Shown in pieces: positions 4,324 through 45,554 of a stretch of DNA of 46,431 nt. Source of the stretch: a phage; assembly GCA_021146965.1 (NCBI GenBank), contig GCA_021146965.1_4847.1; one strand, given 5' to 3'. Under the pieces are notes generated by a model. The model saw only the letters and a program-made list of their open reading frames with translations. It was not told where the DNA came from and did no database searches. How positions within the stretch are numbered: the stretch's first letter is position 1; every line of letters starts with the position of its first letter. The position numbers and the translations under genes were made by a program.

Positions 4324-6697
4324 TGGCTGAAGAAGTCGGCGGAATTGTCTATGAAGTCGGGATGGATGTTAAAGGCCTGAAGGCTGGCGCGACAACAGCC
4401 AATAAGACTTTAGGTGACCTTGAATCATCAACCAACAAAACCACAAGCGCCCTTGGCAAGCTGGATAAAAACGCCAGAAATGCTGGCAGCGGAATGAAAA
4501 ATGCTGGCGGCGCAGCTTCAGGGCTAAAAACGCAGATGACGGCTCTTGCTGGCGCAATATCCGTGTCACTGATTATCGAATGGGGAAAGCGATTCCTTGA
4601 TGTTGCCGATAACATGACACAACTTCAGGCAAGGATTGCTCGCTTGTCAACTGATGCGAAAACCGCGAACGAAACATTCAGTACACTGGCAAATATCGCC
4701 TCGACCACTGGCGCAAGTCTCAGCGACACCACGAAGCTGTGGGAAACATTGACGTCATCACTGAAAGAGGCTGGCGCGACAAATGCGCAGGTTCTTAACC
4801 TTACTGACACTCTGCAAAAGATAGGACGAATCGGCGGGTCATCAACAGAAGAAATGGCGAACGCCCTGCGTCAGTTCGGTCAGTCAATTGCTTCTGGCAC
4901 AATCCGCGCCGAAGAATTTAACTCCATCCTTGAACAGATGCCTGAACTTGCGCGCCAGATTGCAGCTGGACTTGGCATTTCAATGGGCGAACTTCGCGCC
5001 AGAATGCTTGACGGAAAGCTGACGGCAGAAGATGCACTGAATGCCATTCAGGACAGGACAAGCATCGTCAATGCTGAGTTTGAAAAACTTCCTCGCACAA
5101 TGGATCAGGCCGTTGGTTCTCTTGAAGTTTCATTCTCCAAACTTGTGGTTGCCGTTAACGATGCCACTGGCGCATCAAAAACAGCAGTAGAGATTATCGA
5201 CCAGCTGGCAAAATACATTGATTTCCTCGGCGACAAATCAACCAGCACGAGCGACAAGATTCTATCTCTCGCCACGGTTATCTCGAAGCTAAACCCAGGC
5301 GCATGGGCACAAATGGGGGTTGATGCGCTTTTCGGTGATGATGATATTGAGAAGCAAAAACAATATAACGATCAAGTCGAGCGATTCGTTAAGGCTTCAA
5401 AAGAAGGTTACGAGCAGACAAAGAAACAGGCTGAAGCAACAAAACACCTGAAGATTGCACAAGCACCAACCAAAGACAAGAAAGGCAAAGGAAAGGGCAA
5501 AAGCGCCGAAGAACGGCAAGCTGAGTCAGTTGCTGAAAAGCTGGAGAAATTACGCCAGCAAACCATGCTTAATGCCACATCTACCAGCGAACTCTCCCGC
5601 GATCAAGCCATCCTCAACGCGCAGCAATCGCTTGGCAAGGCTGCCACTCAGGAACAAATAAAACTGGCTGGCGAGTACGCTGCGAAGATTTGGGACCAGA
5701 GAAACGCGCTGAAGGAGCAGGCAGCAGCTGAGAAAGAAAAGCAGCGCGTAGAAAAATCATATCAGGGGTTGCGCGCCATTGCGTCACCAACATCTGGCAT
5801 TGATAGTGAATACCAGCAACGCATGGCTGACCTTGACGCCTACGCCGCAGCATATCCACAAAAAATCACGGAGATTGAGCAGACTCGCGCAGCAATTGAG
5901 GCACAGTACCGCCAGCAGAGAATGGACGCCATGTGGGCTGAATGGCAGCAGCAAAGCCTCGGGGCGCAATTGTTCGGCACGGCGCTTGATTCAGCGATGA
6001 GTACAGCATCAAACAGCATCACTGGATTGCTCACAGGCACAATGAGCGTTCAGGATGCAATGCGCAGCCTCGGCTCTACGGTGCTGAATTCTCTGGTAAA
6101 CAGCTTTGTTGAAATGGGCGTTCAGTGGGTTAAATCCGCCGTTATGGGGCAGACTGCGCAGGTTGCGGCAACAGCTACCACCACAGCGGCGCAAACGGCA
6201 GGACTCGCAACCACAACAGCAGCATCAACTGCAGCGGCAGCAACCACTACCGCAGCATGGACTCCAGCGGCAATCGTAGCATCAATCGGTTCATTCGGCG
6301 GGGCGGCTGCAATTGGTGTAGGTGCTGTTCTCGGGGCACTGGCAATGGGTATCGCTGGCAAGCGAAAAAATGGCGGCTCAGTTAGCGCCGGAAGTATGTA
6401 CGAAGTGGGCGAAAATGGCTTGCCTGAAATATTCCAGGCGTCCAACGGTCGCCAGTATATGATTCCCGGCAACGATGGCTCAGTTATCAGCAACAAAGAC
6501 ATTACCGGAAGTGGCAGTGGCGTTGTGGTTTATAATAACGTGATAAATAACAGCTCTGCTCAGGTTAGCAGCAGTGCCAGAGATAATGGTGATGGCAGTG
6601 TGACGATTGAGACTATCGTTAGTGATATCGAAAACAACGGCCCTATCGGGCAAAGCATTGGAAGAAACTACTCAGCAAGCCGGAGGGCAACTGAATA

Positions 6698-36015: not shown

Positions 36016-36542
36016 GCAACATTAGTAAGGAAAGCATTTTAAAGTTCCTCCAGCATGATGAAAATACAGGAAACTTTCTATGGATTGATAATTTCTCAAG
36101 AAAATCAAAGAAAGGGAAGGTGGCTGGAGGTATTACATCGCATGGGTATTGGAGAATTCAACTCCCCATCGGGAGGTTTTACGCACACAGAATGGCGTGG
36201 ATTGTTTGCAATGGAGATATACCAAACGGATATGAGATTGATCACATAAATGGGAACAAGAAAGATAATCGCATCAGCAACCTAAGATTGGTCACAAGAG
36301 GTCAAAATGTTATGAATGTAGGCGTGAAAAACAATAATACAAGCGGAGTTAAGGATGTTGTTTGGGACTCTTCGCGAGAAAGGTGGAGGGTTCAAATTAC
36401 AGCCAATGGCAAGCATTATTATGGAGGTAGATTCTCGTCAATAACACAAGCAAAAGAGGAGAGGAACAGGCTCATAAAGATGGTTCACGGGAAATTTTTG
36501 AATACAAAAGGTGAGCAATATGACACTACTAATGAACGATGA
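36012..36542 (+). CDS. HNH homing endonuclease with AP2 domain (paralog 4 of 4)
   Basis: IDHINGNKKDNRISNLRLV plus AP2-like SGVKDVVWDSSRERWRVQITANGKHYYGGRF; ATG 36012 with GGGAGA RBS. Confidence 0.8.
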   Translation: MSNISKESILKFLQHDENTGNFLWIDNFSRKSKKGKVAGGITSHGYWRIQLPIGRFYAHRMAWIVCNGDIPNGYEIDHINGNKKDNRISNLRLVTRGQNVMNVGVKNNNTSGVKDVVWDSSRERWRVQITANGKHYYGGRFSSITQAKEERNRLIKMVHGKFLNTKGEQYDTTNER

Positions 36543-41529: not shown

Positions 41530-41556
41530 AAAAGGGGGTTTATCCCCCTTCTTTGT
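41530..41556. terminator. bidirectional rho-independent terminator
   Basis: AAGGGGG-tttat-CCCCCTT hairpin flanked by A-run and T-rich tract, between convergent MCP (+) and 41540..42346 (-). Confidence 0.6.
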
Positions 41557-42346
41557 ATCTAATTTCACCGTAAACCATGTACTGTAACATGTAACAAAAC
41601 TCCCATTCCGTCATATCTGTCCGTAGCCACTTCCTGTTCTTCTTGTAATTGTACTCCGCCAGCTCCGCTTTTAAATTGTGAAGAGCATTAACCAGTTCTG
41701 GATATACGAGGTTATTCTTAACAAACCAGTTGACAGATAAAATATGGTCAATATGCCAATTATTGCGGTCATCAAAACTCATCCATGGAAGCATGGTTGA
41801 TTTTATATGCTTAATGAAATCATCCTTTGAGTACCCGAGAACATCATCTACTGTTCTATCAAGCGCAATGTCAGATACTCTCATATCAAGCCGCTCAAGC
41901 ATTTTTCTTAGGAACACGTGGTGTGGGTGCTTCTTTTGCCATTGCCTGACATTATCCAGAGCCTTTTTATTGCCTTTCTCTGAGTAGTACCATCTGCGAT
42001 AAGCTTCCCTTTTCTTTTGTAAAAACTCCTCCTTTTTCTCTGGATTCTCGTTAAGCCTTTGCATCTTCCTTTTGTTGTACTCCTGTTGTGATTGTTTTCT
42101 TTTCTTTTTGTACTCGCTGTTATCCTTGTTTTTCTGCCACTCCTTTTTTCTGTACTCACTTTCCTTGCGTTTGCGCTCCTCTGTTGTTCTCTGCTTCCTT
42201 GTTCTTTCGTATACGCAATGCTTGCATCCGCCTGATGCTGTAAAAAACACAGTTCCACCACATACAGAGCATGGAATCCATTCACACACAAATTGCTTCA
42301 GTCCAGCAACCCTTGCTTCTTGCGCGGCTTCTTTTCTTGTTTTCAT
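41540..42346 (-). CDS. zinc-ribbon protein with Lys/Glu-rich low-complexity region and C-terminal HNH-like motif
   Basis: N-terminal CEWIPCSVCGG...CKHC zinc ribbon; ~100-aa K/R/E-rich segment; C-terminal NWHIDHILSVN...NALHNL reminiscent of HNH core; AGGAG RBS. Confidence 0.5.
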   Translation of the reverse strand: MKTRKEAAQEARVAGLKQFVCEWIPCSVCGGTVFFTASGGCKHCVYERTRKQRTTEERKRKESEYRKKEWQKNKDNSEYKKKRKQSQQEYNKRKMQRLNENPEKKEEFLQKKREAYRRWYYSEKGNKKALDNVRQWQKKHPHHVFLRKMLERLDMRVSDIALDRTVDDVLGYSKDDFIKHIKSTMLPWMSFDDRNNWHIDHILSVNWFVKNNLVYPELVNALHNLKAELAEYNYKKNRKWLRTDMTEWEFCYMLQYMVYGEIRYKEGG

Positions 42347-42635: not shown

Positions 42636-42660
42636 ACCCGCATAATGCGGGTTTTTTATT
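42636..42660 (+). terminator. rho-independent terminator
   Basis: ACCCGCAT-a-ATGCGGGT hairpin followed by TTTTTTATT. Confidence 0.65.
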
Positions 42661-42670
42661 GGGGGTTTCT

Positions 42671-43489
42671 ATGGCTGTCAGGTACGAAATAAACACAACT
42701 CCGGCTGACGGAGAGGTTTTGCTTAGCGAAACCATGTCTGCGGACTGGTCAGCATTACAGGTGCAGATTGTGCCGCTAAATTCTTCCGGTGGCTATGTGC
42801 CATTAACAAGCGGGTCTGTTTACGTAATGGTATCGCCGTTTGCGTCTGGTGATTTCTGGATTGACGTCAACAATAATAATTATTATGGCGTAGCGCTGCG
42901 GCTGAAGGTGATCAAGTCCCAAATACCTGCTGGCATTGCATCTCTGAAAGTCCTTGTATGGCGAGCAGCTACATCAGTGCCATCAAGTCAGGTTGTGGCA
43001 CAGTCCTATGCAGAGTTTGCTAACAAGCAAGGGAAGTTATTCACTGCGTCGCGCAGAGTAACTGATGTCGCTGGCAGCTCAAACCTTGACAGCATATTTA
43101 TCACCGGAACAAAGCAGGTGATATTCAACCAGCGCATTATTGGTTACACGGGGAAAGGTGTTGTTGCATCAATCTATCGCGGCGCAGTTGCCACTGGCGG
43201 TACGACGGCAGAGATTAACAACCCAAACGACATAACGCCACAAGCAGCTACGGCGCAGTTAATTACTGGCGCTACCGTGACAAACATCGGGCAGCTGACG
43301 GTGGCGGCAACATACAGTGAGGGTAACGCATCGAATCAGGGGCAGGGTAACTCGCAGGCGAAGCTCGGCGAGCAGATTATCATGGCACCGAATACGACGT
43401 ACTTACTTCGCATAACATCACTAGATACTGCGGCGCAGAATATCAATGCGTACGTTTCATGGTTTGAGGATGATACTTATCTGGCGTGA
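42671..43489 (+). CDS. hypothetical protein (possible structural/decoration protein)
   Basis: ATG 42671 (track starts at TTG 42659); Ser/Thr/Gly/Ala-rich beta-like composition. Confidence 0.45.
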   Translation: MAVRYEINTTPADGEVLLSETMSADWSALQVQIVPLNSSGGYVPLTSGSVYVMVSPFASGDFWIDVNNNNYYGVALRLKVIKSQIPAGIASLKVLVWRAATSVPSSQVVAQSYAEFANKQGKLFTASRRVTDVAGSSNLDSIFITGTKQVIFNQRIIGYTGKGVVASIYRGAVATGGTTAEINNPNDITPQAATAQLITGATVTNIGQLTVAATYSEGNASNQGQGNSQAKLGEQIIMAPNTTYLLRITSLDTAAQNINAYVSWFEDDTYLA

Positions 43490-43495
43490 TAAAAG

Positions 43496-43522
43496 AAAAG
43501 CCCCGCAAGGGGCTTTTTATTG
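43496..43522. terminator. bidirectional rho-independent terminator
   Basis: AAAAGCCCCG-caa-GGGGCTTTTT hairpin between convergent genes. Confidence 0.65.
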
Positions 43523-44059
43523 CTACAGACGCATAGGCATAACAACAATCTTCGCAGTCTCTCCAGATGGCGCACTAAGACAGCAAACAGCGGCATCTGT
43601 GTTTCCATTTAGTTCAAATTTAACGCAACAGAATCTTGGGTTAAACAGCTTTGCCACCTTCTCGATATCAACAAGGTAGCCAGCATTGAAGCCAATTTTC
43701 TCTGCCGGCAAGGTCTGATTCGGAATGACGCGATCAATATCAGGGAATCGACCATCAATCTCTTCGCAGATACCTGCTCCAACCATCGCGCCGGCTTCAT
43801 CATGATACGTTGCAATTTTCGACTTTGTATCAATGATGGCGTGCTCATAACGCTTTGTTGGTGACTTGCCAATCTTGATGATTACATTTTCTGTCAGCTT
43901 ATTGTCATGGTTGCCACCAATAAATGCGCGATGACCGTCAGTTGAGGCAATGCGACCATCTTGCATAAAGCAAATACCATTCAGGTAGTAGCGCACATCA
44001 TTGCGAGCCTGAAAGATTAATGCTGATTCAAGTAATAATTTGCTGATTTTTAGTTTCAT
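43523..44059 (-). CDS. truncated DnaN (DNA polymerase III beta sliding clamp)-like protein
   Basis: ~178 aa; N-terminal ~115 aa align with E. coli beta clamp domain II (NDVRYYLNG, STDGHRAF, EEIDGRFPDIDRVIP vs QDVRYYLNG, ATDGHRLA, KLVDGRFPDYRRVLP); C-terminal ~60 aa align with the end of domain III and finish with VVMPMRL, identical to the DnaN C-terminus; start at ATG 44059 (AGGTG RBS). Confidence 0.7.
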   Translation of the reverse strand: MKLKISKLLLESALIFQARNDVRYYLNGICFMQDGRIASTDGHRAFIGGNHDNKLTENVIIKIGKSPTKRYEHAIIDTKSKIATYHDEAGAMVGAGICEEIDGRFPDIDRVIPNQTLPAEKIGFNAGYLVDIEKVAKLFNPRFCCVKFELNGNTDAAVCCLSAPSGETAKIVVMPMRL

Positions 44060-44232
44060 CACTTCACCTTAATCATGTGTTGTTTTGCAACCTTCAGGCA
44101 TTCTTCAAAAATGCCACCATTCTTTGCGCTCTGATTGCGCTTGTAATACTGAATTGCCGCATCAATTGCCATCTGGTCGATTTCAGGCAGTTTTGCGCGC
44201 AGCTGTTTTTCGATGAATTGTTCGGCGTTCAT
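44059..44232 (-). CDS. small hypothetical protein (57 aa)
   Basis: ORF MNAEQFIEKQLRAKLPEIDQ...; stop overlaps start of DnaN-like gene; below track cut-off. Confidence 0.4.
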   Translation of the reverse strand: MNAEQFIEKQLRAKLPEIDQMAIDAAIQYYKRNQSAKNGGIFEECLKVAKQHMIKVK

Positions 44233-44317: not shown

Positions 44318-45127
44318 TCACATCTTCTCCAGAATTGCCATAACCTCGTGAATGTCAGCAACAGGAATCTGAATAAATTCCTCATCCTCTGCCACCACAT
44401 GACCAGCAGGGAGAATTACATGGTCAGCTGGCTTCAGTAACTCAATCAGGCGGTCTACTGGCTTAATCTTTTTCGACTTCAGCACTTTGGCTGTGACCTT
44501 ATCCTTGCCTTGCGCCTTCGCTTCTTCGACCGCTTCGTCGATAACTTTTACCGCATCATCTCCATGTTCGCGCGTTACCGCTACGGCATTTGCATAGCTG
44601 ATCTGTCCGGCACTGATTCGCGCTTTTACTTCCGCAGGCACATCACCCAACGACAGGTGCATTTGCACGTCAGATACTGAGCGGCCTACCTTCTTGGCGA
44701 TTTCCTCGTTTGTCCAGCCAAAACCTTTCAGACGCGTGTAAGCCTTTGCGCGTTCAAACGGGTCAAGTTGCTTGCCCTGACTTGATGACACCATGAATGC
44801 GATTTTGTCAGCCTCGTCGCCAGTAAAATCCTTACACTCAATGCGAACGATTGGTGCGCCGCGCTCAATGGCTCGCAATGCGCCGAGGTAGCGATGCTGC
44901 CCATCAAGAATGCGGATACCTTTATCGTCAGGAATAACTGTTAATGCTGGCAATGGCTGACCTGACTCCCAGCACTGCGCGAAATATTCCACATGCTGCT
45001 CATCTGCTTCACGGATGTTGTATCCCGGCTCCAGATAGATTTGCTCTACTGGCACGAGGTAGGTTTTGTTAACAGCGATACCGTTACGCGTTTCTTTGTC
45101 TGAATAGATTTTGCTTAGTGTTTTCAT
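44318..45127 (-). CDS. ParB-like protein (ParB/Srx N-terminal domain plus HTH)
   Basis: ILDGQHRYLGALRAIERGAPIVRI matches ParB/sulfiredoxin-fold core; central TNEEIAKKVGRSVSDVQMHLSL resembles ParB HTH. Confidence 0.6.
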   Translation of the reverse strand: MKTLSKIYSDKETRNGIAVNKTYLVPVEQIYLEPGYNIREADEQHVEYFAQCWESGQPLPALTVIPDDKGIRILDGQHRYLGALRAIERGAPIVRIECKDFTGDEADKIAFMVSSSQGKQLDPFERAKAYTRLKGFGWTNEEIAKKVGRSVSDVQMHLSLGDVPAEVKARISAGQISYANAVAVTREHGDDAVKVIDEAVEEAKAQGKDKVTAKVLKSKKIKPVDRLIELLKPADHVILPAGHVVAEDEEFIQIPVADIHEVMAILEKM

Positions 45128-45468
45128 TATTTCTTTCCTAATGCTTTATTGATAGATTCTTCAGCTAACAGCAATTCATCTGGGTATTGTTCATTCCAGT
45201 TTTGTTTGTATGCCTTGCTAAGCATTTTTTGCAGAGCTTCAAGCAACTCAGGTGCTGCTGCCATTAAATTAAAGTCATGCTCAACACTGCTATCAATCTC
45301 CCAATGCATCCCGTTGTATTTAGCACCCTTGCTAGAGAAGGCAATATTTCTGTCATCGTCGTGGTGACAGCCAGGTGTGTCATCAGTTCGACAAGACGGG
45401 TAAATAGCTGCGCAACCCCCGCGAATGTCTGCGACCCACGGCCCGGGCGTACCTTTAAATTCTTTCAT
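45127..45468 (-). CDS. small protein, paralog of 31640..31942 (Ead/Ea22-like?)
   Basis: MKEFKGTPGPW N-terminus and AAAPELLEALQKML / NKALG C-terminal motifs shared with 31640..31942; start ATG 45468 with GAGGTG RBS. Confidence 0.5.
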   Translation of the reverse strand: MKEFKGTPGPWVADIRGGCAAIYPSCRTDDTPGCHHDDDRNIAFSSKGAKYNGMHWEIDSSVEHDFNLMAAAPELLEALQKMLSKAYKQNWNEQYPDELLLAEESINKALGKK

Positions 45469-45492
45469 TTTCATCACCTCTAATATTTATTG

Positions 45493-45554
45493 TTGTTTCT
45501 ACGTCACTAACTATAAACGCACCACCAATCTACGTCAACAGGAATATGCTAAAA
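45493..45554. promoter_or_regulatory. divergent promoter/operator region with two motif copies
   Basis: TTTCTACGTCA (45497-45507) and CAATCTACGTCAACA (45526-45540); on minus strand these give TTGACG - 17 nt - TATAGT; TAAAAT at 45549-45554 for rightward genes. Confidence 0.45.

Follow-up and report, generated by a model that had tools for sequence, protein, structure and literature searches.

What would a phage do with half of a sliding clamp? The question is raised by a 178-residue open reading frame (ORF) on the minus strand of a 46,431-nucleotide phage contig (GCA_021146965.1_4847.1 of NCBI GenBank assembly GCA_021146965.1), the whole of which is referred to here as the window. The phage is a Skatevirus-like siphovirus; in a compared region of 2.5 kb it shares about 88–93% identity with Skate, C1, Sf11, swi2 and two BASEL phages, Bas78 and Bas80. 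A first-pass annotation, made from the letters alone, had read the product of this ORF as a half-length homolog of the bacterial beta sliding clamp, DnaN, that keeps the peptide-binding cleft of the clamp but has lost the ring. The beta-clamp pocket is a hub for more than 12 bacterial replication, repair and regulatory proteins, and is an antibiotic target. Our analysis establishes that the phage protein, called the half clamp below, is a genuine DnaN derivative of one and a half domains, and leads us to ask what a copy of the pocket would be good for once it has left the ring.

The relationship with DnaN is supported by sequence comparisons of several kinds. With E. coli K-12 DnaN taken from NC_000913.3 as the reference, the motifs common to both proteins fall at DnaN positions 150-157 (DVRYYLNG), 172-176 (TDGHR), 238-243 (DGRFPD) and, at the C-terminus, 360-366 (VVMPMRL); all four motifs quoted in the first-pass annotation (DVRYYLNG, TDGHR, GRFPD and VVMPMRL) are present in the half clamp and in the reference. 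A phmmer search against all PDB sequences returned beta clamps only, with the Enterobacter cloacae clamp as the best match (E 5e-10) and E. coli 1MMI at E 2.6e-9. In the phmmer alignment, residues 7-120 correspond to DnaN 136-254 and residues 121-178 to DnaN 316-366, and pairwise alignments likewise cover these two segments only, in agreement with the earlier statement that domain I and the first half of domain III are absent. What is missing relative to DnaN is domain I plus exactly one repeat unit, DnaN 255-315. When a profile built from 93 diverse family members is aligned with E. coli DnaN, it reaches 92 bits and places the C-terminal unit on both halves of domain III, on the first half weakly, as is expected because domain III is an internal beta-alpha-beta3 repeat. 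The local alignment score of this unit is 63 against DnaN 301-366 versus 22 against DnaN 246-312, and its IGFN..Y and MPMRL motifs are those of the second half of domain III.

Searches with curated domain models returned the DnaN matches that the first-pass annotation had proposed looking for, although below the curated thresholds. The Pfam beta_2 (E 0.0097, 16.6 bits) and beta_3 (E 0.046, 14.0 bits) matches both lie below the cut-off of 27, the TIGR00663 score of 34.8 bits does not reach its cut-off of 137.65, and the Pfam search gave no match to PF00712, the N-terminal clamp domain, in the half clamp. The three-domain architecture that defines DnaN (PF00712 + PF02767 + PF02768, about 360-380 residues) is thus not that of this 178-residue protein. 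Compared with DnaN (2POL/1MMI), the half clamp has domain II, the linker and the C-terminal strand in the same order, carries the DVRYY motif of the 148-152 loop and shares 16 of 18 pocket residues. It differs in its length (178 versus 366 residues), in lacking the dimer-interface residues and hence the head-to-tail dimer ring, in having one channel helix fewer, in being basic rather than acidic, in scoring below all curated thresholds and in being dispensable for the phage.

Structure prediction points the same way. An AlphaFold2 model made with the family alignment has a predicted local distance difference test (pLDDT) value of 96.8 and a predicted template modelling (TM) score, pTM, of 0.91. 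Foldseek ranked E. coli DnaN first in the PDB (E 3e-8, TM 0.62-0.66 normalised on the query), and the model has the DNA-clamp fold of beta-alpha-beta3 repeats with continuous outer sheets, so that the DnaN-like fold expected by the first-pass annotation is confirmed at the level of the model. No half-length protein was among the solved-structure matches listed in the fold searches against the PDB. One feature had been overlooked in the first reading: the second helix of domain II (DnaN 197-207) is replaced in the model by a loop with a conserved proline, leaving two of the three expected channel-lining helices. The half clamp is predicted to fold as a compact, soluble, stand-alone protein.

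The part of DnaN that has been kept includes nearly all of the peptide-binding pocket. Eighteen pocket residues have been listed for E. coli beta (PMC11139829), with subsite I made up of R152, L155, T172, G174, H175, R176, L177, P242, R246, V247, V360 and M362, and subsite II of H175, N320, Y323, V344, M362, P363, M364 and R365. Sixteen of these 18 are identical in the half clamp, the exceptions being L177, which is replaced by alanine, and V344, which is replaced by threonine; overall identity to E. coli DnaN is about 30%. Twelve positions are at least 90% conserved in the 93-member alignment (M1, D21, R23, Y25, L26, T40, G42, H43, P106, Y128, M174 and P175), and 10 of them are pocket or cleft positions. 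The mean frequency of the most common residue in the same alignment is 0.71 at pocket-equivalent positions versus 0.38 elsewhere (Mann-Whitney p 7e-7), a test that used a wider list of 21 pocket positions, drawn up before the published list was consulted. Judged by these alignments, the client pocket is kept almost residue for residue, as the first-pass annotation had proposed for the cleft, and is the most conserved part of the family.

The ring has not been kept. The dimer-interface residues of DnaN (I78, F106, I272 and L273, plus R103, E298 and E304; PMC11139829) all sit in domain I or in DnaN 255-315, regions that have no counterpart in the half clamp. Because these residues are absent, the half clamp can neither close a DnaN-type ring nor use that interface to dimerise with a beta subunit of the host. 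On this comparison a DnaN-type ring is excluded, and the loss of the ring asserted alongside the retained cleft is borne out on both sides of the dimer interface.

Several lines of evidence indicate that this architecture is no accident of one genome. HMMER, run exhaustively over 1.84 billion cluster representatives, returned 1600 proteins at E<=1e-3 and 174 at E<=1e-10; the family thus comprises at least 174 clusters at 50% identity. Nearly all of the best 150 family matches are 170-215 residues long and aligned end to end, and so large a family of constant length argues for a selected architecture rather than decay. By tblastn the gene was found in 274 phage records, including phages of Salmonella, Escherichia, Klebsiella, Vibrio, Shigella, Proteus, Burkholderia, Pantoea and Edwardsiella, and BFVD holds many predicted structures with TM scores of 0.8-0.89 to the half-clamp model. 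For two distant members the contigs found were of 4 kb only, and the neighbouring genes on them were uninformative. Residues 1-178 also match positions 1-186 of the 190 in the PHROG 3007 profile (E 4.4e-61). This group is labelled 'RusA-like Holliday junction resolvase', and the label has spread to RefSeq (NC_054651, NC_054636, NC_054649, NC_016566 and others) and to pharokka annotations. Neither a RusA fold nor the Pfam RusA profile was found in the half clamp, for which sequence and fold searches gave sliding-clamp homology only. Nothing in the Pfam, TIGR00663 or fold searches speaks for a RusA-like resolvase, and the label is a systematic mis-annotation.

Other records name the gene more aptly. 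Many GenBank entries call it DNA polymerase III beta subunit or clamp, and a 2004 record notes Bcep43 gp15 (tblastn match, E 3e-13) as 'DNA Pol III b subunit fragment'. Kazlauskas & Venclovas 2011 (PMC3201878) found five of 12 phage polIII-beta homologs to be short, and described the short forms as covering 'the second and third domains'. The half clamp belongs to the same family as these short, phage-borne proteins (together with PHROG 3007 and Bcep43 gp15), but differs from the description in having only half of domain III. The searched parts of that paper contain nothing on pocket retention, oligomeric state or function of the short forms. Full-text searches of the literature brought up no study of what a half-length phage clamp does or how it is built, and none that notes retention of the pocket. 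The first-pass annotation had known of no description of such a protein. As far as the homology goes that view has to be given up, in light of the GenBank names, the Bcep43 'fragment' note and the 2011 survey, while for function and pocket retention it stands, neither having been found in the literature searched. The family is widespread, long annotated and functionally unexplored.

Whether the gene is needed can be judged from genome-reduced CRISPR mutants of Skatevirus seszw (Yuan et al., 2022; PMC9825161), in which gene 16 encodes a protein with 91.6% identity to the half clamp. Essentiality was inferred from the deposited mutant genomes (MZ375345, MZ375333 and about 70 other seszw records). 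Matches of at least 99% identity were found in 72 seszw-lineage records for the coat gene, in 47 for gene 16 and in 15 for gene 17, the homolog of the 57-residue ORF that precedes the half clamp. In seszw_260L, a large-plaque isolate of 37.4 kb, genes 16 and 17 are both gone, and several other mutants have the same gap; in seszw_200L gene 16 is present and gene 17 absent. Because gene 16 can be deleted in viable mutants, the half clamp is an accessory gene and not an essential part of the replisome, and plaques can form on the laboratory host without it. Across the seszw mutants gene 17 has been lost in most and gene 16 in about a third. The mutants examined all have an annotated ParB-like gene 18, although in one it is shortened. 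In two natural Skatevirus-like phages, Salmonella phage SB28 (MK947460) and ST44 (OQ860973), just 12-13% of the stretch that spans the half clamp and the ParB-like gene is matched, and the whole cassette is apparently absent or replaced there.

The half clamp is the last gene of a four-gene minus-strand operon, preceded in order by a 116-residue ORF, a ParB-like helix-turn-helix (HTH) protein and the 57-residue ORF (Table 1). Its reading frame starts at an ATG, with a GTG one codon upstream, and this ATG overlaps the stop codon of the 57-residue ORF (TGATG); the two genes are probably translationally coupled. The phage Skate record annotates the same terminator feature as that at 43496-43517. 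None of the four operon proteins matched any PADLOC defence model. In the Skatevirus relatives Bas77 and Bas78 a DNA methyltransferase gene lies between the ParB-like gene and the 57-residue ORF, a gene that the window operon lacks, and in Bas77 the first operon gene is an 'anti-restriction protein', the slot filled in the window by the phrog_1273 ORF. The 57-residue ORF was considered as a source of the missing half domain and rejected, as it appears helical, is not found in other genera and is lost separately from the half clamp in seszw mutants. The stretch from the major capsid gene to the half-clamp terminator contains two genes (41540-42346, minus strand, and 42659-43489, plus strand) that are not at this position in Skate or Bas78; one is endonuclease VII/HNH-like (phrog_1035, E 4e-19) and possibly a homing endonuclease, and the other encodes a 276-residue protein of unknown function (phrog_5335).

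Table 1. Coordinates of the half-clamp gene, its parts and its operon in the window.
Feature	Position	Strand	Basis
Half-clamp coding sequence, 178 residues + stop codon	43523..44059	-	ORF list, DnaN homology, structure model, PHROG 3007 match
DnaN domain II equivalent, residues 1-113 (DnaN ~130-249)	43721..44059	-	Subsite I residues R23/Y25/L26, T40/G42/H43/R44, P106/R110/V111
Linker + single beta-alpha-beta3 unit, residues 114-178 (DnaN 316-366)	43526..43720	-	Subsite II + C-terminal strand residues N125/Y128, V172/M174/P175/M176/R177/L178
Shine-Dalgarno sequence AAGGTG, 5 nt 5' of half-clamp ATG	44065..44070	-	Sequence read
57-residue ORF, phrog_4439, unknown function	44059..44232	-	PHROG match
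ParB-like HTH DNA-binding protein, same operon	44318..45127	-	Pfam HTH_ParB E 2.5e-11, KorB; phrog_1033 E 3e-91
116-residue ORF, first gene of operon, phrog_1273, unknown function	45127..45477	-	PHROG match
Predicted sigma-70-like promoter TTGACG-17-TATAGT, 10/12 matches	45510..45538	-	Consensus scan only
Strong bidirectional intrinsic terminator AAAAGCCCC-TTGC-GGGGCTTTT	43496..43517	both	6 nt past half-clamp stop, ends operon

If the pocket is to bind anything, its ligand should carry a clamp-binding motif, and the phage itself offers few candidates. Three such motifs were found in the window proteome versus 4.3 expected, which is no enrichment, and no conserved clamp-binding motif, terminal ones included, was found in neighbours of the gene across ten loci. 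Since motifs are not enriched in the phage proteome, host proteins are the likeliest ligands. Two isolated matches may be recorded. Residues 155-160 of the ParB-like protein (QMHLSL) fit the hexameric clamp-binding-motif pattern, but lie inside the predicted HTH domain. Bas78_0071 (36050-36247), an ORF of 62-65 residues between the Sak4-like and ExoVIII genes of Bas78, starts with MQMKLF, an N-terminal motif match that may be due to chance; the window has no ORF at this position.

We hypothesize that the half clamp is a soluble module, in essence a free pocket, and that it draws clients away from the host clamp by competition, a reading to which we give about an even chance of being right. The module would consist of domain II and that half of domain III which completes the inter-domain cleft, would stand alone outside any ring, and would be expressed from a small accessory operon with a predicted host-type promoter, beside the ParB-like protein. 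Its retained pocket would bind clamp-binding motifs of the QL[SD]LF type in host replication and repair proteins, with Pol III alpha and epsilon, delta, Hda, Pol I, II, IV and V, MutS and MutL, and ligase as the candidates. Because the module cannot encircle DNA, such binding would take place off the clamp, and the module would therefore compete with the host beta ring for clients. We infer peptide binding, host proteins as ligands, a monomeric state and a benefit to the phage. Within this reading we prefer a sponge or decoy that would re-route clamp traffic to the benefit of the phage. This role is slightly favoured because the gene is dispensable and occupies moron-like positions, and because its operon occurs with anti-restriction genes; among the head genes of Dhillonvirus EP23, Kagunavirus fFiEco03 and Naesvirus Bcep43 it stands alone, as an insert on the opposite strand. 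A bolder form of the proposal is that a minimal, monomeric copy of the pocket, carried by many phage genera, acts as a sponge titrating host clients off the chromosomal clamp and amounts to an unrecognised strategy of host takeover or counter-defence. We advance this tentatively and regard it as rather doubtful. The targets of such a sponge could be Hda, delta, enzymes of mismatch repair or translesion synthesis, or a toxin or defence effector aimed at the clamp.

Several observations weigh against a module that merely competes for host clients. First, the pocket residues are also the best-conserved part of DnaN generally, and a few of them are structural. Second, no DNA polymerase gene was found among the window proteins, either by domain and PHROG scans or in the Bas78 annotation; the phage would thus presumably need host Pol III on the host clamp, and an indiscriminate sponge would also hurt the phage itself, which is the strongest objection to a decoy of that kind. 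Third, in LIET2, Vibrio R20L and Skarpretter the gene lies among genes for helicase, nuclease, single-stranded DNA-binding protein and methyltransferase. Fourth, the BcepC6B copy (gp31, 5058-5573 of the locus) directly follows a phage DNA polymerase gene. Because of this position, and because gp31 ends without the C-terminal MPMRL pocket strand, the family may not be uniform in function; the BcepC6B polymerase itself has no terminal clamp-binding motif. Finally, the family is mildly basic, with lysines kept on the exposed helix face and in the equivalent of the 148-152 loop, which fits direct DNA binding by a tether better than a pure decoy.

The last of these points bears most directly on the alternative that survives best, which is that the half clamp is a tether independent of a clamp loader, comparable to the herpesvirus proteins UL42 and UL44. 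A protein of this kind would bind phage DNA or the phage helicase or primase, and its pocket would recruit to phage DNA either a host polymerase (the Pol III core or Pol I) or an enzyme of repair, boosting the replication of a phage that has neither a polymerase nor a clamp loader of its own. The half clamp has an isoelectric point (pI) of 8.2; in the family as a whole the median is 8.4 and 70% of members exceed 7.5, versus 5.25 for DnaN and 5.8 (net charge -3) for the equivalent DnaN segment. Kazlauskas & Venclovas 2011 (PMC3201878) took a raised pI as a criterion for non-ring clamp homologs that bind DNA directly. Three conserved lysines, K19, K134 and K137, sit at positions that face DNA in the ring. 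The gene content of the window would suit such a role as well, with a Sak4-like AAA_24 protein, a PDDEXK ExoVIII-like nuclease, a superfamily 2 (SF2) helicase, a primase and a DUF3987 helicase present beside the missing polymerase, as would the placement of the gene in replication modules in LIET2, R20L, Skarpretter and BcepC6B. Against it, the deletion phage still forms large plaques, the model retains just two of the three channel helices expected, the shift in charge is modest, and each molecule has a single pocket with no second interface identified. We consider a DNA-bound tether possible but, on balance, unlikely.

The non-ring, clamp-fold processivity factors of herpesviruses comprise the herpes simplex virus (HSV) UL42 monomer, the C-shaped UL44 dimer of human cytomegalovirus (HCMV), BMRF1 of Epstein-Barr virus (EBV) and PF-8 of Kaposi's sarcoma-associated herpesvirus (KSHV). 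They need no clamp loader, as would be expected of the half clamp, have like it a pI above that of ring clamps, and engage a peptide of a polymerase close to the inter-domain connector, which would be a further likeness. Each has two complete domains and binds DNA and the polymerase of its own virus. The half clamp, in contrast, has one and a half domains and a pocket matched to host motifs, and is encoded by a phage without a polymerase gene.

A second alternative replaces the host client with a phage partner. The half clamp would then be a scaffold for a protein such as the neighbouring methyltransferase, a nuclease or the ParB-like protein, or for the polymerase that some of the phages encode, with its pocket re-tuned to a phage motif and no longer serving host clients. 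Methyltransferase genes lying 0-2 genes away in the Skatevirus relatives and in Skarpretter, R20L and BcepC6B, the adjacent polymerase in BcepC6B and the apparent translational coupling to the 57-residue ORF in the window are all in line with this. The pocket, however, is nearly identical to that of the host and does not look re-tuned, neither the window proteins nor the neighbours across the ten loci share a conserved clamp-binding motif, the neighbours vary by genus, the window has no methyltransferase gene, and the seszw mutants show that the 57-residue ORF can be lost while the half clamp stays. A scaffold for phage proteins is therefore improbable. The methyltransferase genes found 0-2 genes from the half clamp in a number of unrelated phages (R20L, Skarpretter, BcepC6B, Bas77 and Bas78) are of Dam or Dcm type, and their proximity may reflect chance, both genes belonging to DNA-metabolism modules, or a functional link.

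A third alternative would restore the ring by other means, for instance with four subunits of 1.5 domains assembled through two-fold interfaces into a six-domain, homo-oligomeric clamp that the host loads. As a matter of geometry only, the three beta-alpha-beta3 units of the half clamp are a quarter of a twelve-unit ring, the half domain exposes a normally buried face that could pair with another copy, and database records do annotate a 'sliding clamp'. Yet the DnaN dimer interface is missing on both sides, a loop replaces one of the helices that would line the channel, the basic pI is atypical of ring clamps, AlphaFold models a monomer at a pTM of 0.91, and the gene is dispensable, all of which make a non-canonical ring highly improbable. 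That the gene is a dead remnant of a captured dnaN, as the old 'fragment' note might suggest, or a RusA-like resolvase, as PHROG 3007 is named, is scarcely credible; the way the family is conserved, together with the fold, effectively refutes it, given a length and a pocket conserved over at least 174 divergent clusters, a ribosome-binding site with translational coupling and a model at pLDDT 96.8.

For the behaviour of a pocket outside the ring there is a laboratory precedent. The monomeric E. coli beta mutant I272A/L273A binds delta about 50-fold tighter than the dimer does and binds DNA, but confers no processivity (PMC11139829). It resembles the half clamp as a non-ring beta that still presents the pocket, and differs in being engineered, full-length and composed of three domains, whereas the half clamp is natural and truncated. 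Phages are also known to manipulate the clamp as an interaction hub. MuC of phage Mu exploits the host clamp through a clamp-binding motif, and its over-expression reportedly disturbs Hda-dependent control of initiation. Gp168 of phage Twort, matched in the fold search as PDB 7evp, sits in the DNA channel. Both of these are ligands or inhibitors of the host clamp, whereas the half clamp copies the receptor site, which would be the reverse strategy.

Hundreds of phage records call this gene 'DNA polymerase', 'sliding clamp' or, wrongly, 'RusA-like resolvase'. If the half clamp is a small, soluble protein that presents this pocket alone, it would represent a new viral way to tap or jam the clamp hub, and would help to explain how small siphoviruses without a polymerase handle the host replisome. 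It would also provide a monomeric reagent for studying clamp-binding motifs or screening against them.

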